Assembly (NCBI RefSeq): GCF_044324785.1
Contig: NZ_CP172127.1
DNA: 64,000 nucleotides
Strand: one strand, 5' to 3'
DNA from: Escherichia coli
GTDB taxonomy: Bacteria > Pseudomonadota > Gammaproteobacteria > Enterobacterales > Enterobacteriaceae
The notes under the pieces were generated by a model that saw only the letters and a list, made by a program, of their open reading frames with translations, did no database searches and was not told the DNA's origin. Made by a program: the position numbers and the translations under genes. Below, in pieces: positions 598 to 20,375 of this stretch. Each line of letters opens with the position of its first letter. Position 1 is the stretch's first letter.

Positions 598-746
598 TTT
601 ACATCCCGGTAATGCAACAAAAGTTAGAGCTTTTAAACGCTGCTACTATACGCGCGCGATTGAGGTTTGGGAATGAGGGCAAGTTAAGGGAGCGTAAAAA
701 TTTATGGGCCTTAAGCGGCCCATAATTTTTTAAAGAGAATTCTGAT

Positions 747-1153: not shown

Positions 1154-1167
1154 TTTTAGCTCCTTAC

Positions 1168-2307
1168 TTAGTACAGAGAGTGGGTGTTACGTTCAATATC
1201 TTCTTTGGTGATACGACCGAACATTTTCCAGTAACACCAGGCGGTGTAGAGCAGAATGATCGGTACCAGAACCACCGCAACCCAGGTCATGACGTTAAGT
1301 GTCAGCTGGCTGGAAGTTGCATCCCACATTGTCAGACTTGCGTTCATCATGGTGCTGGACGGCATCACAAACGGGAACATTGCAATACCGGCAGTCAGGA
1401 TGATGCAGGCCAGCGTCAGGGAGGAGAACACAAACGCCCACGCCGCTTTATCCATACGTGCAGTCAGAATGGTCAGCAGTGGCAGAACCACACCCAGTGC
1501 CGGAATAGCCCACAGAATCGGCGTGTTGTTGAAGTTCACCAACCATGCGCCAGCTTCACGAACCACTTCTTTATTCAACGGGTTAGAGGCTGCGTAATGG
1601 TCCATTGTCGATTTCACGACATAACCATCGATACCGTACATCACCCATACGCCAGCCAGTGCGAAGCAGACCAGTGTCACCAGTGCCGCCACCTGAGCCG
1701 TTGCACGGGTACGCAGGTGCAGTTCGCCCACGGTACGCATTTGCAGATAGGTTGCGCCCTGAGTAATGATCATCCCTACGCTCACCACGCCAGCCAGCAG
1801 GCCGAACGGGTTAAGCAGCTGGAAGAAGTTACCGGTGTAGTACAGACGCAGATATTCATCAACGTTGAACGGTACGCCCTGCAACAGGTTACCGAACGCC
1901 ACACCAATCACCAGCGGCGGAACGAAGCTACCAATGAAGATGCCCCAGTCCCACATGTTACGCCAGCGGGTTTCTTCAATCTTGGAGCGGTAGTCAAAAC
2001 CGACCGGACGGAAGAACAAAGACGCCAGCACGAGGATCATCGCCACATAGAAGCCGGAGAACGCAGCGGCATAGACCATCGGCCAGGCAGCAAAGAGTGC
2101 GCCGCCCGCGGTGATCAGCCAAACCTGGTTACCGTCCCAGTGTGGAGCAATGGAGTTAATCATAATTCGACGCTCGGTGTCGTTACGACCGAGGAAACGG
2201 GTGAGCATGCCCACCCCCATGTCGAAACCGTCAGTGACTGCAAAACCAATCAGCAGAACGCCAACCAGCAGCCACCAGATAAAACGCAATACTTCATAAT
2301 CGATCAT
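1168..2307 (-). CDS. cydB: Cytochrome bd-I ubiquinol oxidase subunit II
   Basis: 379 aa polytopic membrane ORF immediately downstream of cydA. Confidence 0.97.
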   Translation of the reverse strand: MIDYEVLRFIWWLLVGVLLIGFAVTDGFDMGVGMLTRFLGRNDTERRIMINSIAPHWDGNQVWLITAGGALFAAWPMVYAAAFSGFYVAMILVLASLFFRPVGFDYRSKIEETRWRNMWDWGIFIGSFVPPLVIGVAFGNLLQGVPFNVDEYLRLYYTGNFFQLLNPFGLLAGVVSVGMIITQGATYLQMRTVGELHLRTRATAQVAALVTLVCFALAGVWVMYGIDGYVVKSTMDHYAASNPLNKEVVREAGAWLVNFNNTPILWAIPALGVVLPLLTILTARMDKAAWAFVFSSLTLACIILTAGIAMFPFVMPSSTMMNASLTMWDATSSQLTLNVMTWVAVVLVPIILLYTAWCYWKMFGRITKEDIERNTHSLY

Positions 2308-2322
2308 TTGACGACTCCTGTC

Positions 2323-3891
2323 TTAGCGTGCCGGCTGAGTAGTCGTGGAAGACTGCTCAAAGTGATAGCGACCGGTTTTCAGGCTGCTTGGGCCGAGGCG
2401 TGCAAACTTGAACATTAAGAACAATTCTGCCACCAGGAACAGGGTATACAGGCCGCAAATCAGCACCATTGAGAAGATGAGGTCGCCTGCGGTCAGTGAC
2501 GAGTTCGCCACAGCTGTCGGCAGCACTTCACCGATAGCCCACGGTTGGCGGCCATATTCAGCCACAAACCAGCCCGCTTCTACAGCAATCCACGGCAGCG
2601 GAATACCGTACAGCGCGGCGCGCAGCAGCCATTTTTTCTCGCCAATGCGGTTGCGGATGACACTCCAGAAAGAGAGCGCGATGATTGCCAGCAGCAGGAA
2701 GCCACACGCCACCATGATACGGAACGCGAAGTACAGCGGCGCTACACGTGGAATGGAGTCTTTGGTTGCCTGTTGAATCTGCGCTTCAGTTGCATCCGCC
2801 ACGTTTGGCGTATAGCGTTTCAGCAGCAGACCGTAACCGAGGTCTTTCTTCATGCTATTGAACTGATCACGAACCGCCTGGTCGGTAGAACCAGAACGCA
2901 GTTGCTCGAGCAGAGAGTACGCCTTCATCCCGTTACGAATGCGTTCTTCATGCTGCACCATCAGTTCTTTCAGGCCGATAACTGGAGTATCCACGGAACG
3001 CGTTGCAATGATGCCCAGCGCGTAAGGGATCTGGATCGCAAATTTGTTCGTCTCCTCTTCCTGATCAGGAATGCCGAACAGAGTAAAGGCAGCAGGCGCA
3101 GGTTGCGTTTCCCACTCGGCTTCAATAGCAGCCAGTTTGGTTTTCTGCACGTCGCCCATTTCGTAGCCGGATTCATCACCCAGAACAATAACAGACAGAA
3201 CGGCAGCCATACCGAAGCTGGCAGCGATAGCAAAGGAGCGTTTAGCGAAGGCGAAGTCACGACCTTTCAGCATATACCATGCGCTGATACCGAGGATGAA
3301 CATCGCGCCAGTCACATAACCAGACGCTACAGTGTGAACGAATTTCACCTGAGCAACCGGGTTAAGCACCAGCTCGGAGAAGCTCACCATCTCCATACGC
3401 ATAGTTTCAAAGTTGAAATCGGATGCGATTGGGTTTTGCATCCAGCCGTTCGCAACCAGAATCCACAGTGCGGACAGGTTTGAACCGAGCGCCACCAGCC
3501 AGGTGACACACATATGCTGAACTTTACCCAGACGATCCCAACCGAAGAAGAACAGACCTACAAAGGTGGATTCGAGGAAGAAGGCCATCAGACCTTCGAT
3601 TGCCAGCGGCGCACCGAAGATATCCCCTACATAGTGGGAATAGTAAGACCAGTTAGTCCCGAACTGGAACTCCATGGTCAGACCGGTAGCCACACCCAGA
3701 GCGAAGTTGATACCAAACAACTTGCCCCAGAACTTGGTCATATCTTTATAAATCTGTTTGCCGGAAAGGACGTAGACCGTTTCCATAATGGCCAGCAGGA
3801 ACGCCATACCGAGCGTCAGTGGCACAAAAAGGAAGTGGTACATCGCGGTCAAGGCAAACTGTAAGCGCGACAGTTCGACTATATCTAACAT
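2323..3891 (-). CDS. cydA: Cytochrome bd-I ubiquinol oxidase subunit I
   Basis: ORF-track frame 2323-3894 (MMLDIVELS...); start placed at the second Met ([12 protein letters not shown]...) to give the 522 aa expected for CydA. Confidence 0.96.
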
Positions 3892-4228
3892 CATGACTCC
3901 TTGCTCATCGCATGAAGACTCCGAGAGTGAACCCCGTTAGAAAGGGTCACACGCATGCCCCAATACAAAATTATTTGCTCGCCTCTATCGTTGCCATTTC
4001 ATCAAAAGAGGAAAAGACAATGATAAAAAAGTTACAAATATGTTAATGAATAAACCAAATTGATCCCGTAATTATATTACGCCGCAAAATCCTTACAATA
4101 AACAGGTTTTTATTGAGCAAATTTGCATTTTTCGACAGTGATCAATTTATAGCGAAATTGTCACGACATCACCAATTTGATCTACGACAATTTATCGTGT
4201 TTTGCAGATTTTTTTCAAGAATTAAAAA

Positions 4229-4242
4229 TTGATTTATATCAA
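4229..4242 (-). promoter_or_regulatory. Perfect FNR-type box TTGAT-N4-ATCAA in the cydAB upstream regulatory region
   Basis: TTGATTTATATCAA read directly in the AT-rich region upstream of cydA; cydAB is a known FNR/ArcA-controlled operon. Confidence 0.5.
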
Positions 4243-4696
4243 AATCAGCCAAATATGTTAATTATGTATAAACCATAGATCATTGGTAATTTTATTGTTA
4301 ATTTATTGTGAAATATTTATGCAACACAATTATTACAATGAAAAAGTATAGATAAAAAACCAGTGTTTTATTTAACAGAACCGCCCTATCCACTTTTTAT
4401 AATACCAATTGATTAGAGTAGCCAATTTGTTGCTATTTTACATAACATATTTTTATCAAAGTTAATTGATTGTTGCCTTTATGAGCACCGACCGTAAGCC
4501 CGTTATGTTATTGTTTCATTAGTAATAATCACTTAAATGTATCGATAAAACAGGTATGACTTAGCGGGAGTGATTGTTTCTGAGTGAACAGAGGACACTT
4601 TCGCCTGATAAATGAAAAATGAGCGATTTTTGCAAGTTAGTTTTTCTATAGCCGAGTACGCTCAGCGCCTCGCTTGATTACAATGAGGTTGCTGCT

Positions 4697-5641
4697 ATGA
4701 GTCCTGATAATATCGGTTCGGCTGTCAATCGCTTCTTAGGTTGGCCATCTAATGATCCTCTAAAAACAGATAACGAATCAATGACATCACCCGTGACTGT
4801 GCAGGTAATAAAGATGATTGCCGCCATCCTTGACCCACATCGGATAGTCGTTGGAATCGATACACTTTATACAACGCAGCGCGAAACATTTACCTCAGAG
4901 AGTCAACAGCTCATTGAATCAGCATTGCAAACACTTCATGTGATGAATTTAAATAACCTGGAAACAAATCTCGATGAGGAAGGTCACTATCTGGCTTTTG
5001 GATATAACGTTGACACTCCTGACAGAATAACCGTTTCTGCTTATAATGAAAAAAAGCCTGGCTGCTATGGTCAATGTCTTTTAATACAGGATGACGAAAC
5101 AGACTTATTTAACCTGATAAAAGTTAAAATTTTTGAAACCAGGCATAATTATGTCGCTCAATTGATGAGCGATCCGGAATTTATGTTCAAATTTAGTTAT
5201 AGCGCTCAACAAAATAGATTAGAACCTCATCTTCTGGTTCCCACTTATTTCCCTCTAAAAACAAACGAACCGGTTACGCAAGAGGATGTACTGTTACTTT
5301 ATCGTTTCTTTAAAATGGATGGTGATTTTAATATATTAACATCAGATGAATACATGAGTATCATGACACCTCTGATGAAGTGTGAGCGCAGCATCCACGA
5401 CCACAACAGGTATGTGACGGGCAAAGATACCCTTCTTCTGGACTATCCTCCTTCTGGTAACCAGATATATTTCCATATTTTTCCTGACGAATCAGCAACA
5501 CTAGTCCTTTATTTTTCAAACAATGACATTGAATGTTTCGTCTTTGAAAGAGATATTCCGAGCCAGTATCGCTTTTTCAAAATGTTTACCAATCTGGCAC
5601 TGGTTATTGATCAGTTAACCGATGCCAATCAAATACTTTAA
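4697..5641 (+). CDS. Hypothetical protein, 314 aa, AT-rich, no recognisable domain
   Basis: Long ORF with GAGG upstream of the ATG; markedly AT-rich versus flanking core genes; no signal peptide, P-loop or other motif I recognise. Confidence 0.6.
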   Translation: MSPDNIGSAVNRFLGWPSNDPLKTDNESMTSPVTVQVIKMIAAILDPHRIVVGIDTLYTTQRETFTSESQQLIESALQTLHVMNLNNLETNLDEEGHYLAFGYNVDTPDRITVSAYNEKKPGCYGQCLLIQDDETDLFNLIKVKIFETRHNYVAQLMSDPEFMFKFSYSAQQNRLEPHLLVPTYFPLKTNEPVTQEDVLLLYRFFKMDGDFNILTSDEYMSIMTPLMKCERSIHDHNRYVTGKDTLLLDYPPSGNQIYFHIFPDESATLVLYFSNNDIECFVFERDIPSQYRFFKMFTNLALVIDQLTDANQIL

Positions 5642-5721
5642 TTTTTATATATTCCCTGTGGCAAATATTGCTAAACAATGCCCGGGGATTAATTTTTATT
5701 ACTCACGGAAAGATTTAAATA

Positions 5722-6144
5722 ATGATCCCATCTCAAATCTCTTTCAACACCCTTCCTGTCAATGCAACATACGCTTCAGAGACAACAGTTGACACACAAA
5801 AATTCTCTGACATCCTCTACTCAGCGGGGTGTTCCCTAAAGGATCTGGCTTATCTGAGCAGATGTCTGGCATCAATACATCCGACTATCGCCAAAAACAT
5901 TTATGAAACAGAAAATCTCAGCGATCAAAAATTACTGCATATTGATTGCCGTAGTACAAATGAAATCAAGATAAATATCTTTTTTGGTCAACAACGAGAA
6001 GGATTAATTGAAATTAATTCTGACACTGTCATTTTTCCGATATTGTCTTCATTAATTGACTCCGCCATTTCTAAATTTCAACACCAAATCCCCGTTAACG
6101 GTTCAGTAAATCCTGACCTATTGTATGAGGATTATACTGATTAA
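5722..6144 (+). CDS. Hypothetical protein, 140 aa, AT-rich, no recognisable domain
   Basis: ORF 80 bp downstream of 4697-5641 on the same strand with the same AT-rich composition; Ser/Thr-rich N-terminus (MIPSQISFNTLPVNATYASETTV...). Confidence 0.5.
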   Translation: MIPSQISFNTLPVNATYASETTVDTQKFSDILYSAGCSLKDLAYLSRCLASIHPTIAKNIYETENLSDQKLLHIDCRSTNEIKINIFFGQQREGLIEINSDTVIFPILSSLIDSAISKFQHQIPVNGSVNPDLLYEDYTD

Positions 6145-6691
6145 ATCCCTCCTGTCGCGAAAAATGGCCTGCGTTATTGCCAGACGTAATAAAACTTTTG
6201 ATTAACGTTACTCGTACTGGTAGCACCTTCATGTACTTTTCTTTTTTACGAAAAATCAAAAGAGCTAACAAAGGTCATAATTCGCATGAATCATTAATTA
6301 TTTGTTATTTTCAACATTATTTTTACATTAAGCAGAGATGAATTGCAGTGAAATTCGACTTAACTTTTATGAAATGCATTTACTCATGGCTAAAGCCACG
6401 TCACAAAAATGCAAATTAGAAGTTGATCACAATTATCTCAATACATCAAATCAAGTTAATTTTAAAAATTTAACATTCATGACATTAGTTGACATAACAC
6501 ACTGAATTAAAATGATAATTTGAAAACACACTTTAAACAATCATTTCCCGAAAGACATTTTGAAAATAGATCAATTGCAACATTACGGTCAGATAAAGAC
6601 ACTCCTGTGATATTAAACCTGTGCCGTTATGAGCGGCCATAAATACGACGTGTGTAACTTATTTTACTCTCTGTCTTACAAAGGATTACCC

Positions 6692-7141
6692 ATGAAGAAA
6701 GCAACACTTGTGATTGGCGTTATTGGCGCGGACTGCCATGCAGTAGGCAATAAAGTTCTGGACCGAGTTTTTAGCAACCATGACTTCAGAGTTATTAATC
6801 TGGGCGTAATGGTCAGCCAGGACGAATATATTGATGCTGCCATTGAAACTGGTGCTGACGCGATTGTCGTCTCCTCTATCTATGGGCATGGCGATATCGA
6901 TTGTCTGGGCATGCGCGAACGCTGCATCGAGCGTGGGCTGGGTAACATCCTGCTCTATGTGGGCGGTAACCTGGTGGTCGGAAAACATGACTTCGCTGAC
7001 GTGGAAACCAAGTTCAAAGAGATGGGATTTGATCGCGTCTTTTCCCCAAGTCATGACTTAGAAGATGTTTGTCAGCTGATGGCCCACGATATCAACCAAC
7101 GTCATGACGTTGATACTCGCATTCTTGAAGAGGCAATCTGA
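6692..7141 (+). CDS. glmS: Glutamate mutase (methylaspartate mutase) S subunit, B12-binding
   Basis: [24 protein letters not shown]... carries the cobalamin-binding DxHxxG-type motif and resembles clostridial GlmS/MutS; start at the internal Met with an AGGA RBS rather than the ORF-track start at 6629. Symbol follows clostridial nomenclature, not glucosamine-6-P synthase. Confidence 0.9.
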
Positions 7142-8529
7142 TGCAAATCGTCTCTGTCGATATTGGATCGACGTGGACCAAAGCAGCCCTCTTCACCCGG
7201 GAGGGGGACGCGTTAACGTTGGTTAACCACGTTCTGACCCCAACCACCACCCATCATCTGGCGAAGGGGTTTTTCTCCAGCCTGGACCAGGTGTTAAACG
7301 TAGATAATGCCCTCCCCCTGTTAAACAGTGGTGAGGTTGCATTGAAGTATTCCTCCTCTGCCAAAGGTGGGCTGGCGGTTGCCGCAATGGGATTGGTGCC
7401 TTCTATCACCCTGGAAACCGCGAAAGTAACCGCTCACTCTGCGGGGGCTAAAATTGCGCAATATTACGCCTACAAGCTGAACCGCCGTGATATCCAGGCA
7501 CTGGAAGAAACGCAGCCCGATATTCTCTTGTTCACCGGCGGCACCGACGGCGGAGAAGAAAGCTACGGCCTGAATAACGCCCGTGTGCTGGCAGAATCCA
7601 AACTCGACTGCGCCATTATTTATGCCGGAAACCGGGATATTCAGGACGAGGTGCAGGAGATCCTAGGGCATAAAGACCTGACCATCGTCGACAATGTTCT
7701 GCCCGATCTTGACCATCCGAACCCTTTAGCTGCACGCCAGGCTATCTGCGACATATTCCTTAAACGCATCGTTAAAGGGAAAGGGCTGGATGTCGTTGTT
7801 GATAAAACAGGCGAAGAACCAATGCCGACACCGTGGACAGTCTTTGAACTGGTTAAGGCAATCAGTAATGTCGATCACAGCTGGAAAGAGTTCATGCTGA
7901 TCGACATGGGTGGCGCAACCACCGATGTCTATTCCGCCTGTGCCAACACGCTCTCGCCCGACACCGTTTTACACGGCGTACCGGAACCCTTCGTGAAACG
8001 GACGGTGGAAGGCGATCTGGGAATGCGCGTCTCGGCAATGGTGGTTGGTGAAAGTGCGAAAGAGTTAGTCAATGTGAATTTTGCTCAGCAACCCGCACAG
8101 CTGGACGCTTTTTATCATTACCTCCGTCATCTAGTCGCTCATCCCGACTACTTACCCGCGAATGCAGAAGAAAAATATTTCGATACCGTCCTGGCCGGAC
8201 TGTGTGTGGGTTATGCCACCGAAAGACATGCGGGCACCAAAAAAGAGGTCTGCACCTGCGTCGGCAATGTCGATTTACAGATGGGACGTGACCTGACAAC
8301 CGTGCGTAAAGTCGTCGGATCCGGCGGATGGCTCTCGCGTGCCAGTCAGTTCGATATGCATCACTGGTTGAAATACCGCGAGTTAAACGACGACGGTAAA
8401 CGCATTCTCTTACCGACCGAATTTGAATATTACCGCGATTCCCGGGGGCTATTACCACTGCTGGCAAACGTCGCCAGAGTCGATCCACTGGCCGCCGCGC
8501 GCACCAGTATTCAATGCTTAACCCTATAA
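7141..8529 (+). CDS. glmL: Glutamate mutase-associated GlmL/MutL-type protein (actin-like ATPase family)
   Basis: 462 aa ORF between the S and E subunit genes, as in clostridial glmS-glmL-glmE; N-terminus [18 protein letters not shown] typical of the sugar-kinase/actin fold; ATGA overlap with glmS. Confidence 0.8.
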   Translation: MQIVSVDIGSTWTKAALFTREGDALTLVNHVLTPTTTHHLAKGFFSSLDQVLNVDNALPLLNSGEVALKYSSSAKGGLAVAAMGLVPSITLETAKVTAHSAGAKIAQYYAYKLNRRDIQALEETQPDILLFTGGTDGGEESYGLNNARVLAESKLDCAIIYAGNRDIQDEVQEILGHKDLTIVDNVLPDLDHPNPLAARQAICDIFLKRIVKGKGLDVVVDKTGEEPMPTPWTVFELVKAISNVDHSWKEFMLIDMGGATTDVYSACANTLSPDTVLHGVPEPFVKRTVEGDLGMRVSAMVVGESAKELVNVNFAQQPAQLDAFYHYLRHLVAHPDYLPANAEEKYFDTVLAGLCVGYATERHAGTKKEVCTCVGNVDLQMGRDLTTVRKVVGSGGWLSRASQFDMHHWLKYRELNDDGKRILLPTEFEYYRDSRGLLPLLANVARVDPLAAARTSIQCLTL

Positions 8530-8547
8530 CAATTAAGGCTGCAATCA

Positions 8548-9993
8548 ATGGAACTTCGAAATAAGAAATTAACCCATGACGAATTCATGACCGAGCGGCA
8601 ACAGGTACTGAAAACCTGGGAAACCGGCAAGGATGTTGAAAACTTTGAAGATGGCGTTAAATACCAACAAACCATTCCTGAGCATAAACGCTTCTCTCTT
8701 GCGCTGTTGAAAGCAGACAAGGAAGGTAAAACCCTTAGCCAACCGCGCGCAGGTGTGGCGCTGATGGACGAACACATCGAACTACTGAAAACACTACAAG
8801 AAGAGTGCGATCTGCTGCCGAGCACCATCGATGCATATACCCGTCTGAATCGGTACGAAGAAGCGGCTGTAGGGATTAAAAAATCCATCGAAGCCGGAAC
8901 CTCTAAACTGAACGGTTTACCGGTAGTTAACCACGGCGTCGCAGCTTGCCGTCGCCTCACCGAAACTTTGCAAAAACCGCTACAGATCCGCCACGGCACG
9001 CCAGATGCGCGTCTGCTGGCTGAAATCTCGATGGCCAGCGGCTTTACCAGTTATGAAGGCGGCGGCATTTCCTACAATATTCCGTATGCCAAGCGCGTAA
9101 CGCTGGAAAAATCGATCCGCGACTGGCAGTACTGCGACCGTTTAATGGGGATGTATGAAGAACACGGGATCCGCATCAACCGCGAACCGTTTGGCCCACT
9201 AACGGGTACGCTGATCCCGCCGTTTATCTCGCACTCTATCGCGATAATCGAAGGATTACTGGCGCTGGAACAGGGTGTGAAATCTATCACCGTTGGTTAT
9301 GGACAGGTCGGCAGCCTGACGCAGGATGTTGCGGCGATCCAGTCTCTGCGTGAACTTGCACATGAATACTTTCAGAGCTATGGCTATACCGACTATGAAT
9401 TAAGTACCGTGTTTCACCAGTGGATGGGCGGCTTTCCGGAAGACGAATCGAAAGCGTTCGCTATTATCTCCTGGGGCGCAGCCGTCGCGGGGATGTCTGG
9501 TGCCACCAAAGTCATCACCAAAAGTCCGCACGAAGCCTGGGGTATCCCGACTGCCGCTGCCAACATTCAGGGGCTGAAAGCCTCCCGCCAGATGCTCAAC
9601 ATGGTCAATGAGCAGAAATTCCCGCCGTGCCCTGCGGTTGAACTGGAAATTGAACTGATTAAGAGCGAGGTTCGCGCGGTACTGAATAAAGTGTTCGAAC
9701 TGGGTAATGGTGATATTGCGCGCGGTACGGTGCTGGCATTTGAAGCGGGCGTACTGGATGTGCCGTTTGCGCCAGCCGCCTGCAACGCGGGCAAAATTCT
9801 TCCGGTCCGTGACAACACCGGCGCAATACGCGTACTGGAAGCCGGAGCCGTTCCATTGCCAAAAGATATTCTCGACCTCCACCACGATTACGTTGCGGAA
9901 CGCGCACGCTTTGAAGGACGCCAACCGACATTCCAGATGGTTGTAGATGACATCAATGCTGTATCCCACAGTAAATTAATAGGAAGACCATAA
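8548..9993 (+). CDS. glmE: Glutamate mutase (methylaspartate mutase) E subunit
   Basis: 481 aa ORF, size and position of the catalytic E subunit; adjacent to the S subunit and methylaspartate ammonia-lyase. Confidence 0.9.
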   Translation: MELRNKKLTHDEFMTERQQVLKTWETGKDVENFEDGVKYQQTIPEHKRFSLALLKADKEGKTLSQPRAGVALMDEHIELLKTLQEECDLLPSTIDAYTRLNRYEEAAVGIKKSIEAGTSKLNGLPVVNHGVAACRRLTETLQKPLQIRHGTPDARLLAEISMASGFTSYEGGGISYNIPYAKRVTLEKSIRDWQYCDRLMGMYEEHGIRINREPFGPLTGTLIPPFISHSIAIIEGLLALEQGVKSITVGYGQVGSLTQDVAAIQSLRELAHEYFQSYGYTDYELSTVFHQWMGGFPEDESKAFAIISWGAAVAGMSGATKVITKSPHEAWGIPTAAANIQGLKASRQMLNMVNEQKFPPCPAVELEIELIKSEVRAVLNKVFELGNGDIARGTVLAFEAGVLDVPFAPAACNAGKILPVRDNTGAIRVLEAGAVPLPKDILDLHHDYVAERARFEGRQPTFQMVVDDINAVSHSKLIGRP

Positions 9994-11234
9994 TGAAAAT
10001 AAAACAGGCTCTGTTCACCGCTGGCTACTCCTCATTCTATTTCGATGACCAGCAGGCGATAAAAAACGGAGCGGGTCATGACGGCTTTTTTTATACCGGG
10101 GAGCCAGTAACACAGGGGTTTAACGCCGTACGTCAGGCCGGGGAGTGCGTATCGGTACAGTTGATTCTGGAAAACGGCGCGGTCGCTGTAGGTGACTGTG
10201 CTGCCGTACAGTATTCCGGGGCAGGTGGTCGCGATCCACTGTTCCTCGCAGAGCACTTTATTCCGTTCCTCAACGACCATATTAAGCCATTACTGGTAGG
10301 CCGCGATGTAGATGCTTTCCTGCCGAATGCCCGTTTCTTCGACAAATTGCGTATTGACGGCAACTTGCTACATACCGCCGTACGCTACGGATTATCACAG
10401 GCGCTGCTTGATGCTACCGCGCTGGCAACCGGCCGTCTGAAAACTGAAGTGGTCTGTGATGAATGGCAGTTGCCACGCGTGGCGGAATCCATTCCATTAT
10501 TTGGTCAGAGCGGGGACGATCGATATATCGCCGTCGATAAGATGATCCTTAAGGGCATCGACGTGCTGCCCCATGCACTGATTAATAACGTCGAAGAGAA
10601 ACTGGGCTTTAAAGGTGAAAAACTGCGCGAATATGTCCGCTGGCTGTCGGATCGTATTCTGAGCAAGCGCACCAGCGCACGCTACCACCCTACCCTGCAC
10701 ATCGATGTATACGGCACTATCGGTCTGATCTTCGATATGGATCCGCTTCGCTGTGCGCAATACATCGCCAGCCTGGAAAAAGAAGCGCAAGGCCTGCCGC
10801 TCTACATTGAAGGGCCGGTCGATGCCGGTAACAAGACCGATCAAATTCGCCTGCTGACCGCGATTACCAAAGAGCTGACGCGCCTCGGTTCCGGCGTGAA
10901 AATTGTGGCCGATGAATGGTGTAACACCTACCAGGATATTGTTGATTTCACTGATGCCGCCAGTTGCCACATGGTGCAAATCAAAACCCCGGATCTGGGC
11001 AGTATTCACAACATCGTCGATGCAGTTCTTTATTGCAACAGCCACAGCATGGAAGCGTACCAGGGCGGCACCTGCAATGAAACTGATGTCAGTGCCCGCA
11101 CCTGTGTCCACGTCGCCCTTGCCGCTCGCCCCATGCGTATGCTGGTAAAGCCAGGGATGGGCTTTGACGAAGGCCTCGATATCGTCTTCAACGAAATGAA
11201 TCGTACTATCGCGCTGTTGCAGGCTAAGGATTAA
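9993..11234 (+). CDS. mal: 3-Methylaspartate ammonia-lyase (beta-methylaspartase)
   Basis: 413 aa enolase-superfamily-like ORF, 1-nt overlap with the glmE stop; size and context match methylaspartate ammonia-lyase. Confidence 0.88.
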   Translation: MKIKQALFTAGYSSFYFDDQQAIKNGAGHDGFFYTGEPVTQGFNAVRQAGECVSVQLILENGAVAVGDCAAVQYSGAGGRDPLFLAEHFIPFLNDHIKPLLVGRDVDAFLPNARFFDKLRIDGNLLHTAVRYGLSQALLDATALATGRLKTEVVCDEWQLPRVAESIPLFGQSGDDRYIAVDKMILKGIDVLPHALINNVEEKLGFKGEKLREYVRWLSDRILSKRTSARYHPTLHIDVYGTIGLIFDMDPLRCAQYIASLEKEAQGLPLYIEGPVDAGNKTDQIRLLTAITKELTRLGSGVKIVADEWCNTYQDIVDFTDAASCHMVQIKTPDLGSIHNIVDAVLYCNSHSMEAYQGGTCNETDVSARTCVHVALAARPMRMLVKPGMGFDEGLDIVFNEMNRTIALLQAKD

Positions 11235-11237
11235 CAA

Positions 11238-12608
11238 ATGGCTCGTTCTTTTAAAGTCTTATCGCCAACGGCAATCCTCGGGTATGGATTCCCGGAAGAG
11301 AGCTTCCGCAAAGCGATGGCAGAATCGCCCGATCTGATCGCCGTTGATGCAGGCTCTTCCGATCCAGGCCCCCACTACCTCGGGGCGGGCAAACCGTTTA
11401 CCGATCGCGCAGGGGTCAAGCGCGATCTGCGCTATATGATCACCGCAGGCGTTCAAAATAATATACCGGTGGTGATCGGAACGGCCGGCGGTTCTGGTGC
11501 CGCTCCACACCTGGAGTGGTGCCGAGAAATAATTCATGAGATTGCCCGGGAAGAGCACCTCTCGTTCTCGATGGCGCTGATCCCAGCAGACGTTGACAAA
11601 GCCATCGTCCACCAGGCGCTGGATAACGGCAAAATCACGGCGCTGGATTTTGTCCCGCCGTTAACCCACGACGCGATTGACGAAAGTACGTATATCGTCG
11701 CGCAAATGGGCATCGAACCCTTCCAGCGGGCGCTGAAAGAAGGCGCGCAAGTGGTGCTGGGCGGGCGCGCTTACGACCCGGCCTGCTTTGCTGCGCTACC
11801 GATCATGCAAGGCTTTGATGAAGGTCTGGCGCTGCATTGCGGGAAAATCCTTGAATGCGCGGCAATCGCCGCAACGCCCGGCTCAGGCTCTGACTGTGCG
11901 ATGGGCATCATTGATGACAACGGCTTTACGCTGAAGACATTTAATCCGAAGCGTAAATTTACCGAAACGTCAGCAGCTGCACACACACTGTATGAGAAAT
12001 CCGATCCCTACTTCCTGCCAGGACCTGGCGGCGTGTTGAACCTGAAAGGCTGCACATTTAAAGCGGTCAATGACGGCGAAGTGTACGTCAGCGGTTCTAA
12101 GCATGAAGAAACGCCGTATGCCCTGAAACTGGAAGGTGCGCGACGGGTGGGCTTCCGCTGTCTGACCATCGCCGGAACGCGCGACCCGATCATGATCGCC
12201 GGGATCGATAAAATCATCGATGAAGTCAAAACCAGCGTTTCGCGTAACCTGTCGCTCGACGATGACAGCATTCGCATCAATTTCCACCTGTACGGCAAAA
12301 ACGGGGTGATGGGCGACCATGAACCGATGCAAACTGCCGGGCATGAGCTGGGGATTGTCCTAGATGTAGTTGCACCGACCCAGGAAATTGCCAACAGCGT
12401 TTGCTCGCTGGTGCGCTCTACTATGCTGCACTACGGCTATGAAAACCGCATCGCTACCGCAGGCAACCTGGCGTTCCCGTTCTCCCCTTCTGATATCCAG
12501 GGCGGGCCAGTATACGAATTTTCCATATATCACCTGATTGAAGCCAACGACGCTCTGCGTTTTGATTTCCATATTGAACAGGTGACGCCAGAAGGAGTTC
12601 AGGCATGA
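11238..12608 (+). CDS. Uncharacterised protein, 456 aa (possibly AtuA/DUF1446-like)
   Basis: ORF 4 bp downstream of mal, same strand and GC content as the cluster; family assignment is from memory of architecture only. Confidence 0.7.
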   Translation: MARSFKVLSPTAILGYGFPEESFRKAMAESPDLIAVDAGSSDPGPHYLGAGKPFTDRAGVKRDLRYMITAGVQNNIPVVIGTAGGSGAAPHLEWCREIIHEIAREEHLSFSMALIPADVDKAIVHQALDNGKITALDFVPPLTHDAIDESTYIVAQMGIEPFQRALKEGAQVVLGGRAYDPACFAALPIMQGFDEGLALHCGKILECAAIAATPGSGSDCAMGIIDDNGFTLKTFNPKRKFTETSAAAHTLYEKSDPYFLPGPGGVLNLKGCTFKAVNDGEVYVSGSKHEETPYALKLEGARRVGFRCLTIAGTRDPIMIAGIDKIIDEVKTSVSRNLSLDDDSIRINFHLYGKNGVMGDHEPMQTAGHELGIVLDVVAPTQEIANSVCSLVRSTMLHYGYENRIATAGNLAFPFSPSDIQGGPVYEFSIYHLIEANDALRFDFHIEQVTPEGVQA

Positions 12609-12922
12609 AACAGTCAATTGTCTCACTGGCGCAAGTCATTCGTTCGAAAAATGCCGGACCTTACGAACTGGTTTTAGATATTTTATTTAAAACCAAAGAA
12701 AACTATGAGCGAGTTAAATCATCAGGGCAATTAACCCCAGAACTGATTGCGCGCTTATATCATGTTGAACCTGACTTTATTCACCGTATTGTCTGGTTTG
12801 ATCCTTCTAACGCAGTAAAAATCGTCATGCCACGAGATATTATCTCCGGGAATGTAGGTGACAATGATGTCTATGGTGCACAGCAACATGCACCTTTATT
12901 AAATATGAGTTTCGATTTGTAA
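12605..12922 (+). CDS. Uncharacterised small protein, 105 aa (possibly DUF4387-like partner)
   Basis: ORF overlapping the previous stop by 4 nt (translational coupling). Confidence 0.6.
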   Translation: MKQSIVSLAQVIRSKNAGPYELVLDILFKTKENYERVKSSGQLTPELIARLYHVEPDFIHRIVWFDPSNAVKIVMPRDIISGNVGDNDVYGAQQHAPLLNMSFDL

Positions 12923-13000
12923 AAATCCGAACATTTTTAGCCAACTGACATCCCGTCACTTATTGCAGTTCAACACTTCAGCTATTTGTAAGGTTGTAAT

Positions 13001-13040
13001 AGCAGGTAGATGCCTGAATCTCTATTCGGGCATCTACTTC
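13001..13040 (+). other. Stem-loop (GTAGATGCC...GGCATCTAC) between the enzyme genes and the symporter gene
   Basis: 9-bp perfect inverted repeat read directly, followed by a pyrimidine-rich stretch; possible internal terminator or attenuator. Confidence 0.3.
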
Positions 13041-13082
13041 TCCTGATTCTGATTTATCGCCGTGCACCTGATGGAGGAAAAA

Positions 13083-14363
13083 ATGAAGAAAATAAGTTTA
13101 ACCACGATGATTCTTTTGGCGCTGGTACTTGGAATGATTATCGGCGTAGTGCTCAATAACACTGCTTCACCGGAAACCGCAAAACTCTATGCGCAAGAAA
13201 TATCGATATTCACGACGATTTTCTTACGACTGATAAAAATGATTATCGCTCCGTTAGTGGTCTCTACCCTGGTGGTAGGTATAGCTAAAATGGGCGATGC
13301 CAAAGCCCTTGGTCGTATTTTTTCTAAAACACTCTTTTTATTTATTTGCGCCTCATTGCTGTCAATTGCCTTAGGCTTGATAACAGTAAATTTCTTCATG
13401 CCAGGCACAGGAATTAATTTTGTTGCACACGGAGCCGAAACCACCGGAGTGGTCGCGTCAGAACCCTTTACGCTAAAAGTATTTATTTCGCATGCTTTCC
13501 CCACCAGCATTGTCGATGCCATGGCGCACAATGAAATTTTGCAAATCGTGGTGTTCTCAATTTTCCTCGGCTGTAGCCTGACGGCGATTGGCGAGAAAGG
13601 CAGCGCCATCGTTCACGCCTTAGATTCGCTGGCACATGCCATGTTAAAGCTCACTGGCTACGTCATGCTCTTCGCTCCCCTGACCGTATTCGCTGCTATT
13701 TCAGCATTGATTGCTGAACGAGGACTGGCAGTTATGGTGAGCGCCGGGATCTTTATGGGTGAATTTTATTTCACCATGTTATTACTTTGGGTGCTGCTTA
13801 TCGGTCTGGCCATCGTTTATGTCGGCCCCTGCATCAGACGCCTGACCCGCGCCCTTTCGGAACCCGCCCTGCTGGCATTTACCACATCCAGTTCTGAAGC
13901 GGCTTTTCCGGGAACGCTTGAAAAACTGGAGCAATTTGGCGTTTCCCCCAAAATTGCCAGCTTTGTCTTACCCATTGGCTACTCATTTAATCTCGTTGGA
14001 TCAATGGCCTACTGCTCCTTCGCCACAGTTTTCATCGCCCAGGCCTGCAATATCCATTTATCCATCGGTGAGCAAATCACCATGCTGTTGATCCTGATGT
14101 TGACCTCGAAAGGAATGGCTGGCGTACCACGCGCCTCAATGGTGGTTATCGCCGCCACGCTCAACCAGTTCAATATTCCGGAAGCGGGGCTGATCTTGCT
14201 GATGGGCGTTGATCCGTTCCTTGATATGGGGCGTTCCGCGACAAACGTCATGAGCAACGCAATGGGCGCTGCGATGGTGAGTCGGTGGGAAGGCGAACAT
14301 TTCGGCGAGGGCTGTCGGGGTAAAGCATTAAAACCCAATGAATCGAACGTTGCTCTGCCCTGA
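13083..14363 (+). CDS. Dicarboxylate/amino acid:cation symporter (DAACS, GltP-like); likely glutamate uptake
   Basis: About 426 aa polytopic membrane protein; start placed at the ATG preceded by GGAGG (ORF track starts at 13062). Confidence 0.85.
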   Translation: MKKISLTTMILLALVLGMIIGVVLNNTASPETAKLYAQEISIFTTIFLRLIKMIIAPLVVSTLVVGIAKMGDAKALGRIFSKTLFLFICASLLSIALGLITVNFFMPGTGINFVAHGAETTGVVASEPFTLKVFISHAFPTSIVDAMAHNEILQIVVFSIFLGCSLTAIGEKGSAIVHALDSLAHAMLKLTGYVMLFAPLTVFAAISALIAERGLAVMVSAGIFMGEFYFTMLLLWVLLIGLAIVYVGPCIRRLTRALSEPALLAFTTSSSEAAFPGTLEKLEQFGVSPKIASFVLPIGYSFNLVGSMAYCSFATVFIAQACNIHLSIGEQITMLLILMLTSKGMAGVPRASMVVIAATLNQFNIPEAGLILLMGVDPFLDMGRSATNVMSNAMGAAMVSRWEGEHFGEGCRGKALKPNESNVALP

Positions 14364-14470
14364 GGGGGATCTTAAGCAATCAGAAGCCAATGACTACGCA
14401 TTTTTATAAGCCGGATCATGAAGTTAGACGGCAATTAAGTAACACTAACGTTTAAGGTGAAAAGTGAAAT

Positions 14471-16123
14471 ATGTCCAAACCATTTATCTGGCAAGAACCG
14501 TTTCTACAAAATAAAGACGGTACAGAATATACATTAATTAGCGATCAACATATTACAGTAACGGAATTAGACGGCGAAGAAGTGATAAAAATCGCTCCTG
14601 AAGCATTAACGCTGCTTGCCCGGCAGGCATTTTATGAAGCCTCTTTTTTCTTACGTTCCGCTCATTTGCAACAGGTCGCCAGCATTCTTAACGATCCGCA
14701 GGCCAGTAGTAATGATAAATACGTTGCGTTGCAGTTATTACGTAATGCTGAAGTCTCAGCAAAAGGGGTATTACCCAACTGTCAGGATACCGGCACCGCA
14801 ACTATTGTTGCCAGTAAAGGGCAACAGATATGGACCGGAGGTAACGACGCCGAAGCCTTAAGCAAAGGCATTTACACCACTTTTCAGGAAAATAATCTGC
14901 GCTTTTCACAAAATGCGCCACTGGATATGTATACCGAAGTCAATACGCAAACCAATCTACCGGCGCAGATTGATATCAGCGCCGTCGCTGGTGATGAGTA
15001 CCATTTTCTCTGTATTAATAAAGGGGGCGGCTCTGCCAATAAAGCCGCGCTTTATCAGGAAACAAAATCCCTATTGCAACCAGAAAAACTGACCGCATTT
15101 TTAATCGAAAAAATGAAATCGCTGGGCACCGCTGCCTGCCCGCCTTACCACATCGCCTTTGTCGTCGGAGGGCTTTCAGCCGATCAAACCTTAAAAGTTG
15201 CCAAGCTGGCCTCAACGAAATATTACGACAATTTGCCCACCAGCGGAAACGCGCAGGGACAAGCATTCCGTGATATTGAGTTGGAAAAAGCGTTGCTCAA
15301 CGCCAGTCAGCAATTTGGTATTGGTGCGCAATTTGGGGGTAAATATTTCGCTCATGATATTCGCGTCATTCGTCTGCCGCGTCACGGTGGCTCTTGCCCG
15401 ATAGCTATGGCGCTCTCCTGTTCTGCCGATCGCAATATCAAAGCAAAAATTAACAAGCACGGTATCTGGCTGGAAAAACTCGTACACAATCCGGGGCAAT
15501 ATATTCCAGCCTCACTGCGGGAAGAAAATCACCCGCAACATGTACAGCTGGATCTAAACCGTCCGTTGCGTGACGTGATGCAGGATCTCGCCAGATTACC
15601 GGTAGGCACCCGCGTGTCGTTAAATGGTCCCATCGTAGTGGCGCGCGATATCGCCCACGCCAAAATAAAAGCGCGGCTGGATAGCGGCGAACCGATGCCG
15701 GATTACCTGAAGCATCATATTGTCTATTACGCTGGCCCGGCGAAAACACCTGAGAACATGGCCTGCGGTTCACTGGGTCCAACCACGGGTGGACGAATGG
15801 ACGGTTATGTCGATACCTTCCAGGCGGTTGGCGGCAGTCTGGTGATGTTATCGAAAGGTAACCGCAGCCAGCAGGTCACCGATGCCTGTCACAAACATGG
15901 CGGCTTCAATCTGGGAAGTATTGGCGGTGCAGCAGCGTTACTGGCGCAAGAATATGTCAAAAGTCTGCGTTGCCTGGAATACCCGGAGCTGGGTATGGAA
16001 GCGGTGTGGATGATGGAAGTGGAAAATCTGCCCGCATTCATCCTGGTAGATGATAAAGGCAATAATTTCTTTAGTCAGTTTGAGCAGCAACACCGCTGCG
16101 CCAGTTGCCCTGCGGGACATTAA
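14471..16123 (+). CDS. Class I (Fe-S) fumarate hydratase paralogue; candidate mesaconase
   Basis: 550 aa ORF co-linear with the FumA/FumB family ([11 protein letters not shown]..., GSCP and CxxC motifs); located inside the methylaspartate cluster. Confidence 0.9.
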
Positions 16124-16132
16124 GGAAAATGA

Positions 16133-16735
16133 ATGGAAGCGCGAATTTCAACTGAACGGCATGTGCAGCGCCAGCAGAAATTGAAGGAACAGGTCGATAC
16201 GCGCGTCGCGGCGGCGATAGAGAAAAAAGGGATCTTGATTGTTTTCACCGGCAACGGCAAAGGGAAATCCACTGCCGCGTTTGGTACTGTGACGCGCGCG
16301 GTGGGTCATGGCAAAACGGTGGGGGTTGCGCAGTACATCAAGGGGCAATGGGACAACGGCGAATACAACCTTCTCCAGCCGCTGGGGGTTGAGTTTCATA
16401 TTATGGGAACCGGTTTTACCTGGGAGACACAGAACCGGCAAGCGGATATCGACGCGGCGAAAGAGGTCTGGTCGGAAAGCAAACGGATGCTGGCTGACAA
16501 GCGTTACGACTTAGTGGTGCTTGATGAGCTGACCTATATGCTGGCTTACCATTATCTGGACACCGAAGAAGTGATCGCTTCTCTGCAAAACCGCCCGGCA
16601 CAACAAAGTGTCATTGTCACCGGACGCGGTTGCCACAGTCAGATATTAAAAATGGCGGATACGGTCAGCGAAATCCGCCCCGTCAAACATGCTTTTGATA
16701 ACGGCATTCAGGCGCAGCCGGGTATCGACTGGTAA
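16133..16735 (+). CDS. Corrinoid (cob(I)alamin) adenosyltransferase, BtuR/CobA family
   Basis: 200 aa ORF with P-loop VFTGNGKGKSTAAFG; strongly resembles BtuR; would supply adenosylcobalamin to glutamate mutase. Confidence 0.9.
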   Translation: MEARISTERHVQRQQKLKEQVDTRVAAAIEKKGILIVFTGNGKGKSTAAFGTVTRAVGHGKTVGVAQYIKGQWDNGEYNLLQPLGVEFHIMGTGFTWETQNRQADIDAAKEVWSESKRMLADKRYDLVVLDELTYMLAYHYLDTEEVIASLQNRPAQQSVIVTGRGCHSQILKMADTVSEIRPVKHAFDNGIQAQPGIDW

Positions 16736-16738
16736 TAA

Positions 16739-16765
16739 CTGCGCCTGGCATCCCGCCAGGCGCAG
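16739..16765. terminator. Bidirectional stem-loop between convergent adenosyltransferase and LysR genes
   Basis: CTGCGCCTGGCATCCCGCCAGGCGCAG palindrome read directly. Confidence 0.5.
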
Positions 16766-16768
16766 GTT

Positions 16769-17674
16769 TTACATCTCCTGCGGTACGACCGATTTCGCCA
16801 GCAACCATTCACGAAATTGCTGCAAGTGCGGCGAGTCAGACTTCTCTTCCTGCCACGTCATAATAAAACGATTACCGGTACGAATAGGCACATCACAGGG
16901 AATCACCATATCGCCACTATCCAAATCATGTTGAATAGCGAACCGTGGTAACAGCGCCACGCCGAGATTAGAGCGCACGGCGGCAATCAGCATTGAAAGC
17001 AAATCGAAACGTGGTCCGTTGTTGACCAGCGGACTGCTAACGCCAGATAAGGCAAACCACTCTTCCCAGCCAGTAATACGGGTACTTTGATGCAGAAGTG
17101 GTAACTCTGTAAGCAGTTCTGCCACTGACAGTTTTTGATCGGACATTGCAAGCAAACTGCCGCTGCATACCGGCAAAATCTCTTCTTCAAAGAGATATTC
17201 TACTTCCGCCCAGGGCGCGCAAAAATTTTCGCGCATAATGACAGCATCGTACTCCCGATTAAGAAAATCGCCGTTATTAGCTAAAGAGTGAATATTAACA
17301 ATAATATCGGGATGTAACTTTGTGAATTCATGTAAATTTGGGATTAACCAGTGGGTACTAAACGTAGGATTCACGGCAAGTTCAATAACCTGAACCGTAG
17401 GCTGCCAGGTCATAATGGTATTGGTATCGCGTTCCAGCTTATTTAATGTTTCTTTTACTATCCCCAGGTAATACTTCCCTGCATCATTAAGAAAAATACG
17501 TTTTTTAGAGTGTGAAAATAACGGAGTATGTAAAAATTCCTCCAGCGCACTCACTTGTCTGAATACTGCACTTTGGGTTAACGCTAACTCCTCTGCCGCT
17601 CTGGTATAACTTTCATGACGTGCGACGACCTCAAAAGTCACCAGCAGTTCCGTTTTAGGTATTTTCCCTCGCAT
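16769..17674 (-). CDS. LysR-family transcriptional regulator
   Basis: 301 aa ORF with N-terminal HTH (...YTRAAEELALTQSAVFRQVSALE...) and LTTR-type C-terminal domain. Confidence 0.9.
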   Translation of the reverse strand: MRGKIPKTELLVTFEVVARHESYTRAAEELALTQSAVFRQVSALEEFLHTPLFSHSKKRIFLNDAGKYYLGIVKETLNKLERDTNTIMTWQPTVQVIELAVNPTFSTHWLIPNLHEFTKLHPDIIVNIHSLANNGDFLNREYDAVIMRENFCAPWAEVEYLFEEEILPVCSGSLLAMSDQKLSVAELLTELPLLHQSTRITGWEEWFALSGVSSPLVNNGPRFDLLSMLIAAVRSNLGVALLPRFAIQHDLDSGDMVIPCDVPIRTGNRFIMTWQEEKSDSPHLQQFREWLLAKSVVPQEM

Positions 17675-17943
17675 AATGCCGTCCCTTAAAAATAGTTTAA
17701 ACCATCAAAAATACATTACTTATTACGAAGTAATGGTAACCAAAGCAGCAATAAATAATTTATAAGAATCATGATTGACATTTATAACCCAGTAAGCCTG
17801 GCGTGACAAATATCTTAATCAGATAATAATAATCCGAAAAGCACAGCGCCTTTCGAATTATCCGGAATCACATTAAGTGAAAATTATTAAATTGATATCA
17901 TTTATCATATCTGTGGATATTATGATAAACAATCAACAAAGAT

Positions 17944-18187
17944 TTTATTTTTGATTTATAGCATATCCCTCTAAGAATTTTTGCGATGCTGCAATATCCG
18001 GGGTAAAGACCCGATCCTGGCTGACAAATGGCACGACTTGACGATAAGCGGTGAACATCGCTTTTGTTGATTTACTTAACGCTACGGTCAAACGCTGGGA
18101 AGCCAGTGCATCAGGTAACGATTCGAAATTCGCCGTCGTTCTTATTCGTGGCTTGCGGTCGGTTGCGGCAATCCACAGTGGCTGTGG
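17944..18187 (-). pseudogene. Possible 3' gene remnant (about 80 codons open, no convincing start)
   Basis: Manual minus-strand translation: ...PLWIAATDRKPRIRTTANFESLPDALASQRLTVALSKSTKAMFTAYRQVVPFVSQDRVFTPDIAASQKFLEGYAINQK*; only an internal ATG; sits at the island/sucD boundary. Confidence 0.25.
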
Positions 18188-18236
18188 TCATGCAGTCAAG
18201 CCAGCGGTCAGATTTCGACCGTGGTTAACGTTTAAG

Positions 18237-18339
18237 GCATAAAAAAGGCCATCATACGATGGCCAACCATGTCGAAACCGACAGCCCTTCGCCATTCCTG
18301 TAGAGGGAAGCGGCGAGGGCTATTTCTTATTACAGATAT
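18237..18339 (-). ncRNA. sdhX: sucD 3'UTR-derived sRNA SdhX (RybD) with intrinsic terminator
   Basis: Directly after the sucD stop on the minus strand; ends in hairpin GGCCATCGTATGATGGCC plus T-tract (18241-18264); identity with SdhX is from memory of the K-12 3'UTR. Confidence 0.4.
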
Positions 18340-19209
18340 TTATTTCAGAACAGTTTTCAGTGCTTCACCGATATCCGCCAGGCTGCGAACGGTTTTCACG
18401 CCTGCGGCTTCCAGAGCAGCGAATTTCTCATCCGCAGTCCCTTTACCACCGGCAATGATGGCACCTGCGTGACCCATACGTTTGCCTTTCGGCGCAGTCA
18501 CACCAGCGATGTAACCCACAACTGGCTTGGTAACGTGCTCTTTGATGTACGCAGCCGCTTCTTCTTCAGCGCTACCGCCGATCTCACCGATCATCACGAT
18601 CGCTTCGGTCTGCGGATCTTTTTCGAACATTTCGAGGATGTCGATAAAGTTAGAGCCAGGGATCGGGTCGCCGCCGATACCAACACAGGTCGACTGACCG
18701 AAACCGTAATCCGTGGTCTGTTTAACCGCTTCATAGGTCAGTGTACCGGAACGGGAAACGATACCCACTTTACCCGGTTTGTGAATGTGACCAGGCTGGA
18801 TACCGATTTTGCATTCACCCGGAGTGATAACGCCTGGGCAGTTCGGGCCGATCATGCGAACGCCCGCTTCATCCAGTTTCACCTTCACGGTCAGCATATC
18901 CAGCGTCGGGATGCCTTCAGTGATGGTGATAATCAGTTTGATGCCTGCATCGATAGCTTCCAGAATGGAGTCTTTGCAGAACGGTGCTGGTACGTAGATA
19001 ACAGAAGCGGTAGCGCCAGTAGCAGCAACAGCTTCACGCACGGTGTTGAACACCGGCAGGCCGAGGTGGGTAGTACCGCCTTTACCTGGGGTTACGCCGC
19101 CAACCATTTTGGTGCCGTATGCAATGGCCTGTTCAGAGTGGAAAGTCCCCTGGCTACCGGTAAAGCCCTGGCAGATAACCTTGGTGTTTTTATCAATTAA
19201 AATGGACAT
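18340..19209 (-). CDS. sucD: Succinyl-CoA synthetase alpha subunit
   Basis: 289 aa ORF ([33 protein letters not shown]...). Confidence 0.97.
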
Positions 19210-20375
19210 TATTTCCCCTCCACTGCGGCAACAACCTGCTGAGCTGCATCCGTCAGACCTTTTGCTGCAATAATATTCAGGCCGCTGTCAGCCAGTTTCT
19301 TCGCGCCGAGTTCGGCGTTGTTACCTTCCAGACGTACCACGACCGGTACGTTAACACCCACTTCCGCTACCGCGCCGATGATACCGTCAGCGATCAGGTC
19401 GCAACGAACGATACCGCCGAAAATGTTAACCAGAACGGCTTTCACTTTGTCGTCAGAGAGGATGATTTTGAACGCTTCGGTTACACGTTCTTTGGTTGCG
19501 CCGCCGCCAACGTCCAGGAAGTTAGCTGGTTCGCCGCCGTGCAGTTTAACGATGTCCATGGTGCCCATCGCCAGACCTGCGCCGTTAACCATACAACCGA
19601 TGTTACCGTCCAGCGCAACGTAGTTCAGTTCCCACTGTGCAGCCTGTGCTTCACGCGGATCTTCCTGCGACTGGTCACGCATTTCGCGCAGATCAGGCTG
19701 GCGGAACAGTGCGTTGCCGTCAGCGCCCAGTTTGCCGTCGAGGCAAATCAGATCGCCCTGTTTGGTGATGACCAGCGGGTTGATTTCGATCAGCGCCAGG
19801 TCGCGCTCCAGGAAAATGGTCGCCAGGCCCATGAAGATTTTGGTGAACTGCTGAACCAGTTTACCTTCCAGACCCAGTTTGAACGCCAGCTCGCGTCCCT
19901 GATATGGCATCGGGCCAGTCAGCGGATCAAGCGCAACTTTGTGGATCAGGTGCGGAGTTTCTTCCGCCACTTTTTCGATTTCCACGCCGCCTTCGGTGGA
20001 GGCCATAAAGACCACACGACGGGAACTACGGTCTACAACGGCACCGAGATACAGCTCTTTAGCGATATCGGTCGCTGCTTCAACCAGAATCTGGTTAACC
20101 GGTTGGCCATTGGCATCTGTTTGATACGTTACCAGACGCTTGCCCAGCCAGTTTTCTGCAAAAGCACGGATGTCTTCTTTGCTGTTTACAACTTTCACAC
20201 CGCCCGCTTTACCGCGGCCACCAGCGTGAACCTGACATTTCACTACCCACGGACCGGCACCGATTTTTGAAGCGGCTTCTTCTGCTTCGCGCGGAGTAGT
20301 ACAGGCATAACCCACCGGTGCTGGTAAGCCATAGCGGGCAAAAAGTTGTTTTGCCTGATATTCATGTAAGTTCAT
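19209..20375 (-). CDS. sucC: Succinyl-CoA synthetase beta subunit
   Basis: 388 aa ORF ([18 protein letters not shown]...), 1-nt overlap with the sucD start. Confidence 0.97.

Follow-up and report, generated by a model that had tools for sequence, protein, structure and literature searches.

The window, a stretch of 64,000 nucleotides of an Escherichia coli chromosome, contains a 665-bp interval (17675–18339) between a LysR-family gene and sucD. The left neighbour (16769–17674, minus strand) encodes an intact LysR-family regulator of 301 aa with the Pfam domains HTH_1 and LysR_substrate, and its DNA is 98.3% identical to the LysR gene of genomes in which the island described below carries an intact hut module. 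The right neighbour is the core gene sucD (18340–19209, minus strand, stop codon 18340–18342), beside which sucC and sucB are likewise located on the minus strand. Further left, beyond the LysR gene (minus strand), the plus strand encodes cobO and a class I fumarase. The gap between cobO and LysR is 33 bp in the window, and in E. coli PCN033 it holds an IS200C transposase gene (locus L001, 4458–4916), which is absent from the window. The GC percentage is 45 in the LysR gene and 51 in the whole window.

The LysR gene is part of an island which fills the interval between cydA and sucD, i.e. the slot of mngRAB, in the order glmS-glmL-glmE-mal-AtuA-DUF4387-symporter-fumD-cobO plus LysR. A glutamate-fermentation (methylaspartate) cluster with FumD, CobA and a LysR-type regulator (LTTR), the latter drawn within the cluster, has been described in E. 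coli O157:H7 (Kronen & Berg 2015, PMC4682846). The LysR gene of the window encodes the LTTR of this cluster.

Directly after the sucD stop codon, the SdhX sRNA or sucD 3′UTR (18241–18339, minus strand) ends at a Rho-independent terminator and U-run. The seed UUCGACAUGGU is located at 18266–18276, the stem-loop, with a G+C-rich stem of 7 bp, at 18247–18264, and the U-run at 18241–18246. Both the seed (core CGACAU) and the terminator are as published (PMC6393394). The 99 nt are 100% identical to those of E. coli HS, and the region has a folding energy of −42.1 kcal/mol (z = −4.98). The hairpin that a preceding sequence-only reading of this DNA had placed below the sucD stop is present and intact. 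An Rfam scan of positions 16500–19500 gave no SdhX match at E ≤ 1 (Rfam 15 may hold no SdhX model); the assignment to SdhX is therefore based on the published seed and terminator and on the identity to a K-12-type strain.

Left of SdhX, the minus strand stays open over 80 sense codons (17945–18187, stop 17945–17947), ending in QKFLEGYAINQK*. The same frame had been pointed out earlier as one of about 80 codons with no plausible start; it exists as described, its exact left end being 17945 and not 17944. The frame is closed upstream by an in-frame TGA (18188–18190), and there is no ATG or GTG ahead of an internal TTG at 18091. The TGA is polymorphic, reading TGG in DG342-2 (L003), and therefore an 84-aa ORF is called by PGAP in some genomes and none in others. 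This 'hypothetical protein' starts from a TTG further upstream (window-equivalent 17945–18199) and is found in few strains; most genomes with the same sequence are without any annotation in the interval 17675–18339. An open run of at least 80 codons was obtained in 955 of 2000 first-order Markov simulations (~48%; six frames, 665 bp, matched composition), so openness alone is not beyond chance, and it is homology which makes the frame real. A Pfam search of the 80-aa translation gave no match, the fragment being too short. In a protein-database search with the frame, the only hits were equivalent remnants, some named 'histidine ammonia-lyase' and others 'hypothetical protein'; full-length histidine ammonia-lyases (HALs) were missing from this search, presumably owing to its word prefilter.

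Sensitive blastn of 17700–18145 against E. coli genomes produced matches in 142 genomes at ~86% identity, in two pieces, to the 3′ part of an annotated HAL/PAL/TAL gene. According to megablast, the full-length HAL gene is present in 145 of the 5426 complete E. coli genomes, in the same slot. The intact slot has a 10.3-kb module between LysR and sucD, e.g. in WP5-S18-ESBL-08 (loci L006, L008), with HAL, hutG, hutI, HutD/Ves, an NCS1 'cytosine' permease and hutU, all of them minus-strand genes, and beyond these RtcB, which is encoded on the plus strand and convergent with sucD. Between hutU and RtcB the intact islands have an unannotated gap of 770 bp (L008 8994–9762); an Rfam scan of this gap together with RtcB returned no match at E ≤ 1.

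Local blastn of the window against L008 resolved four collinear blocks. The first (window 16700–18082, L008 7–1389) comprises LysR, a 270-bp spacer and HAL codons 511–556; the second (18078–18138, L008 1733–1793) HAL codons 378–397; the third (18142–18198, L008 10887–10943) RtcB codons 376–394; and the fourth, from window 18201 and L008 11119 onward, RtcB codons 452–465 with the stop codon at 18240–18242, SdhX and sucD.

The minus-strand frame thus consists of 64 HAL-derived codons and 16 codons (18142–18187) antisense to an RtcB piece. Its 3′ end (17945–18082, minus strand; L008 1252–1389) corresponds to codons 511–556 and the stop codon (17945–17947) of the hutH-like ammonia-lyase gene, with 41 of 46 residues identical to the intact HAL protein in tblastn (E = 8e-25). 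The suggestion that the frame represents the 3′ end of a truncated gene, possibly an island-borne one, was accordingly well founded, the gene being this HAL/PAL/TAL-family lyase. Codons 378–397 follow at 18078–18138 on the minus strand (L008 1733–1793; blastn identity 86.9%, E = 5e-16; tblastn 18/20 identical, E = 8e-8), in frame with the HAL 3′ end after a deletion of 348 bp (116 codons). Codons 314–316 (RTT) lie at 18133–18141 on the minus strand, at what is called below the primary junction, and overlap the sole surviving copy of the repeat CGCCGTCG (18131–18138). In total, ~69 of the 556 HAL codons are left in the window. The intact 556-aa HAL protein of a neighbour genome matches PF00221 (E = 4e-123). 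A complete HAL/PAL/TAL catalytic domain spans ~470 residues, and its N-terminal half forms the MIO cofactor. The remnant shows homology to the PF00221 family, with both a complete catalytic domain and a start codon absent, and is not a functional member of it.

Two pieces of an RtcB-family gene were identified on the plus strand; the sequence-only reading had overlooked this second remnant, to which the first 16 codons of the frame are antisense. Codons 376–394 (YSWLAVGCGNPQWLWSCS...) are at 18142–18198, with 91% identity to L008 10887–10943 (E = 1e-17) and 98% to Escherichia sp. E1V33; in tblastn the match extends over codons 376–398 (18/23 identical, E = 3e-13), the DNA match covering codons 376–394. 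The left edge of this piece is the primary junction (TTCT/TATTCGTGG). Codons 452–465 (PAVRFRPWLTFKA) and the stop codon TAA (18240–18242) are at 18201–18242, 97–98% identical to the intact-island genomes, with 13 of 15 residues identical over codons 451–465 in tblastn. The pieces are in different frames (+1 and +2) and are parted by a 173-bp deletion at a CCAGCGG-type repeat. The intact RtcB-family protein (465 aa) matches PF01139 (E = 1e-95); homology to this family is retained in the remnant, and a complete single-frame domain is absent (codons 1–375 and ~399–450 missing). The 16 codons antisense to RtcB are open by chance. An explanation of the whole frame as the antisense of an RtcB pseudogene was also considered and dropped, since the weak alignment to the left of 18142 (33%) proved spurious and sensitive blastn assigned that part to HAL.

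The 270 bp between HAL and LysR (17675–17944, GC 28.9%) are gap-free and collinear with L008 982–1251 at 86.7% identity. The AT-richness of the first ~270 bp after LysR had been observed correctly; these base pairs do not belong to the scar as had been supposed, because the same HAL–LysR spacer is found in intact islands. The spacer predates the deletions and presumably contains the LysR promoter; a promoter scan found no strict sigma-70 consensus on its minus strand. Two haplotypes of the spacer exist, ~12% apart, the divergence of LysR itself being 1–2%. In the scar-bearing strain CUVET19-1396 (L009), the spacer is a mosaic that changes haplotype at about window position 17830, a sign of recombination within it.

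On these grounds, the sequence at 17945–18242 is almost certainly a non-functional composite deletion scar, derived from loss of the hut-rtcB module within the island. The island ancestor carried the hut module and RtcB between LysR and sucD, as the four collinear blocks show. A primary deletion of ~8.9 kb (8903 bp) then joined HAL codon 314 to RtcB codon 376, and three more small deletions (186, 348 and 173 bp), among which we infer the order, wore down the stumps. The lengths are accounted for: the four deletions (8903 + 186 + 348 + 173 bp) equal the difference between the 10,276 bp of L008 and the 665 bp of the window to within 1 bp. The total loss amounts to ~9.6 kb, and 298 bp of gene debris are left.

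Direct repeats of 5–8 bp, with one copy kept, were found at the edges of three of the four deletions. The 186-bp deletion took place between two 8-bp CGCCGTCG repeats and in frame, collapsing HAL codons ~317–377, and the window now reads ...RIRTTANFESLP...; the 348-bp deletion has an AACGC overlap at 18078–18082, and the 173-bp deletion the CCAGCGG-type repeat. The primary 8.9-kb junction has an overlap of at most 1 nt and falls short of microhomology. The repeats at the other three junctions point, most likely, to replication slippage or to illegitimate recombination between short repeats. The lengths of both HAL-stump deletions are divisible by three, which has kept the HAL frame open; it runs on for 16 codons through the RtcB antisense. 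The same is true of every secondary deletion known in HAL stumps, i.e. the 348-bp and 186-bp deletions of the window and that of 270 bp in E1V33, at a chance P of ~0.04 for the three; in-phase microhomology in coding DNA, and not selection, may be behind this.

Related genomes were found in different states of the same slot. Escherichia sp. E1V33 (L014) has the same primary junction string (CGCCGTCGTTCTTATTCGTGGCTTGCGGTC...), reading ...CGCCGTCGTTCT/TATTCGTGGCTTGCGGTC..., and keeps HAL codons 314–441 and 528–556. It holds both copies of CGCCGTCG, 186 bp apart, where the window has one copy and lacks the intervening 186 bp, as is typical of a deletion between direct repeats; the HAL stump of E1V33 has lost 270 bp in a deletion of its own. 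E1V33 thus represents an intermediate stage of the scar. In Escherichia whittamii (L015) the slot bears a scar that arose independently, composed of HAL codons 453–556, a fragment of hutU (168–215) and RtcB codons 435–465. In E. coli MMC-J-0078, an extra 900-bp deletion truncates LysR (L007 3975–4035; window 17178–18080 gone), and in E. coli LD67-1 the HAL gene is frameshifted and split into two CDS in an otherwise intact hut island (L019 10501–12170), which is another, earlier decay stage. The states of these four genomes indicate that the hut-rtcB module has decayed repeatedly. The right edge of the MMC-J-0078 deletion is at most 3 nt from the 348-bp junction of the window (18078–18082), and this breakpoint is located 15 nt downstream of a plus-strand hairpin (18046–18063); the region of 18078–18082 could be a local breakpoint hotspot.

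The whole 665-bp interval was present as a single collinear piece, with at least 95% identity, in 835 of the 5426 complete E. coli genomes (~15%), including O157:H7, O145:H28 and PCN033. Compared with each of the intact E. coli alleles, and likewise with E1V33 and E. whittamii, the spacer and HAL fragments reach only 86–88% identity, and many of their substitutions occur in the window haplotype alone; on either side, LysR and sucD are 98–99% identical to those of hut-intact E. coli. Among the complete E. coli genomes and GTDB species representatives, no intact allele closer than ~88% to the HAL and spacer of the scar was found, and the intact islands sampled therefore do not include the immediate parent allele. 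The scar haplotype stems either from an unsampled lineage or from fast evolution or drift, the identification of the fragments being unaffected. A locus from a MAG labelled Citrobacter sp. HRGM_Genome_0066 (L010) encodes a HAL protein 100% identical to the one in E. coli L008, and it aligns to the window in the same pieces and at the same identities as L008 does; this contig is probably E. coli-derived and mis-binned or mislabelled.

According to the sequence-only reading, the debris is probably the scar of the exchange of mngRAB for the island, the frame being the end of mngR or of a gene at the island edge. The island does occupy the cydA–sucD slot of mngRAB, and the remnant lies less than 300 bp from the island/core junction. 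However, tblastn of the MngR protein of HS against 17675–18339 returned nothing at E ≤ 10, and mngR is on the other strand in K-12-type genomes. Nor does the frame itself mark the island/core boundary, as had been assumed: the true junction is the foot of the SdhX terminator (18241/18242), and K-12-type homology begins only at ~18233–18242. Four states of the slot converge rightwards from the A-run at 18241/18242, i.e. mngRAB (HS), a TPR gene (N39), the intact hut-rtcB module (CDE6306, L008) and the scar. Where the module is intact, the stop codon of RtcB directly adjoins the A-run of the terminator (the complement of the U-tail), exactly as in the window. As this junction is base-for-base the same in genomes with an intact hut-rtcB module, the joint is clean and the debris stems from later deletions inside the island, not from the island-versus-mngRAB exchange, which is a very improbable source.

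The slot is filled by mngRAB in about 3,870 of the 5,426 genomes. Genomes with mngR number 3,884, those with the TPR gene 1,113, with the scar 835 and with intact HAL 145, which adds up to more than 5,426; the TPR gene must hence co-occur with another state and is not a strict alternative. At the foot of the SdhX terminator, a fixed joint, the core genome adjoins one of at least four alternative cargos.

Recruitment of the frame from the debris as a functional small gene, i.e. as the 84-aa ORF in strains that lack the TGA at 18188–18190, is equally hard to credit and has only a slight probability. PGAP annotates it in several genomes and copies are found in protein databases, and both HAL-stump deletions are in frame, like the independent one of E1V33. 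Against this, the frame is closed off by the TGA in the window and lacks an ATG or GTG start, only a TTG being usable by PGAP; the product has no Pfam domain, and the frame sits just downstream of a strong terminator. Part of it has been lost in MMC-J-0078, the patchworks of E1V33 and E. whittamii differ, and three in-frame deletions out of three reach only P ~0.04 and could be explained by microhomology that falls in phase within coding DNA. That the frame is an ORF arisen by chance in ordinary intergenic or promoter sequence has a practically negligible probability: such runs did arise in 48% of the composition-matched simulations and 17675–17944 is indeed just spacer upstream of LysR, but this reading is refuted for 17945–18141, 64 codons out of 80 being homologous to HAL (E = 8e-25 and 8e-8) and the adjoining plus-strand DNA to RtcB (E = 3e-13); the 16 antisense codons (18142–18187) are the only part to which it applies.

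The deletion scar of the hut-rtcB module accounts for the unannotated 665-bp gap and the sporadic 'hypothetical protein' in ~835 complete E. coli genomes, and ORF calls at the scar (WP_001309348.1 and its relatives) should be handled as pseudogene fragments. The scar itself probably does nothing and matters little for biology at large; the functional neighbours, namely SdhX with its terminator, the HAL–LysR spacer, LysR and the methylaspartate glutamate-fermentation cluster, are untouched. The strain would have lost the histidine-to-glutamate feeder pathway and RtcB.

The intact-island HAL (L008 1252–2922) has a signal-peptide-like N-terminus (MKGLIRRVTVTVVLWSVCSIAMAKS), and similar N-termini are present in HAL relatives of Sutterella sp. 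and Turicimonas muris (56–57% identity) and of Serratia (43%) (L011, L013, L012 and L016, each around position 10001). The best NCBIfam match of the lyase is histidine ammonia-lyase, with 277 bits against the hutH equivalog cut-off of 539. It may belong to a family of exported HAL-like enzymes.

The intact island couples hut (histidine to glutamate) with the methylaspartate cluster (glutamate to mesaconate to citramalate), the half retained at 1–17674 of the window, and a pairing of hut with glutamate fermentation has been discussed for other gut bacteria. E. coli is usually treated as not metabolising histidine, i.e. as textbook-negative. The coupling of the two suggests possible histidine catabolism in a minority of E. 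coli, an ability which the lineage of the window and others like it would have lost. Tentatively, and with rather less than even confidence, the intact island may be regarded as one histidine-fermentation unit in ~3% of E. coli (145/5426), perhaps with an exported HAL-like lyase and RtcB, of which the window lineage would be a natural hut-minus derivative. Expression of the in-frame patchwork ORF itself is much less likely. If the former is true, E. coli would be polymorphic for the histidine trait, and the scar lineages (~15%, including O157:H7) would be hut-minus. A hut module coupled to a glutamate-fermentation cluster and lost repeatedly in Escherichia may matter for histidine metabolism in the gut and for imidazole propionate. 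A literature search for hut beside sucD in E. coli, or for the scar, found no description.

The hut clusters of Enterobacteriaceae comprise hutUH, hutIG and hutC in Klebsiella and Salmonella. The intact island likewise encodes hutU, hutI, hutG, HutD/Ves and an ammonia-lyase; it differs in having no gene for the HutC repressor, in a lyase that scores far under the hutH cut-off and has a signal-peptide-like N-terminus, in the extra NCS1 permease and RtcB, and in its fusion to the methylaspartate cluster. In comparison, the window holds debris only. The cluster of Kronen & Berg 2015 (PMC4682846) is the same island as that carrying the scar; histidine is unmentioned in their text, and the hut-rtcB module and its relic are hence not described there. 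With SdhX (RybD) of sdhCDAB-sucABCD, the window agrees in position, seed, terminator and U-tail; no difference was detected, and the scar is without effect on it.

The scar is an ordinary pseudogene or deletion relic, fragments of which are already included in public protein sets. As in the microhomology deletion scars of bacteria, its fragments are collinear with intact orthologues, repeats of 5–8 bp are found at three of four junctions, and stepwise erosion is seen in relatives. Nothing essential differs from the usual scars of this type; mildly unusual are the stumps of two convergent genes mimicking one open frame, and a primary junction that is common to the window and a non-coli Escherichia.
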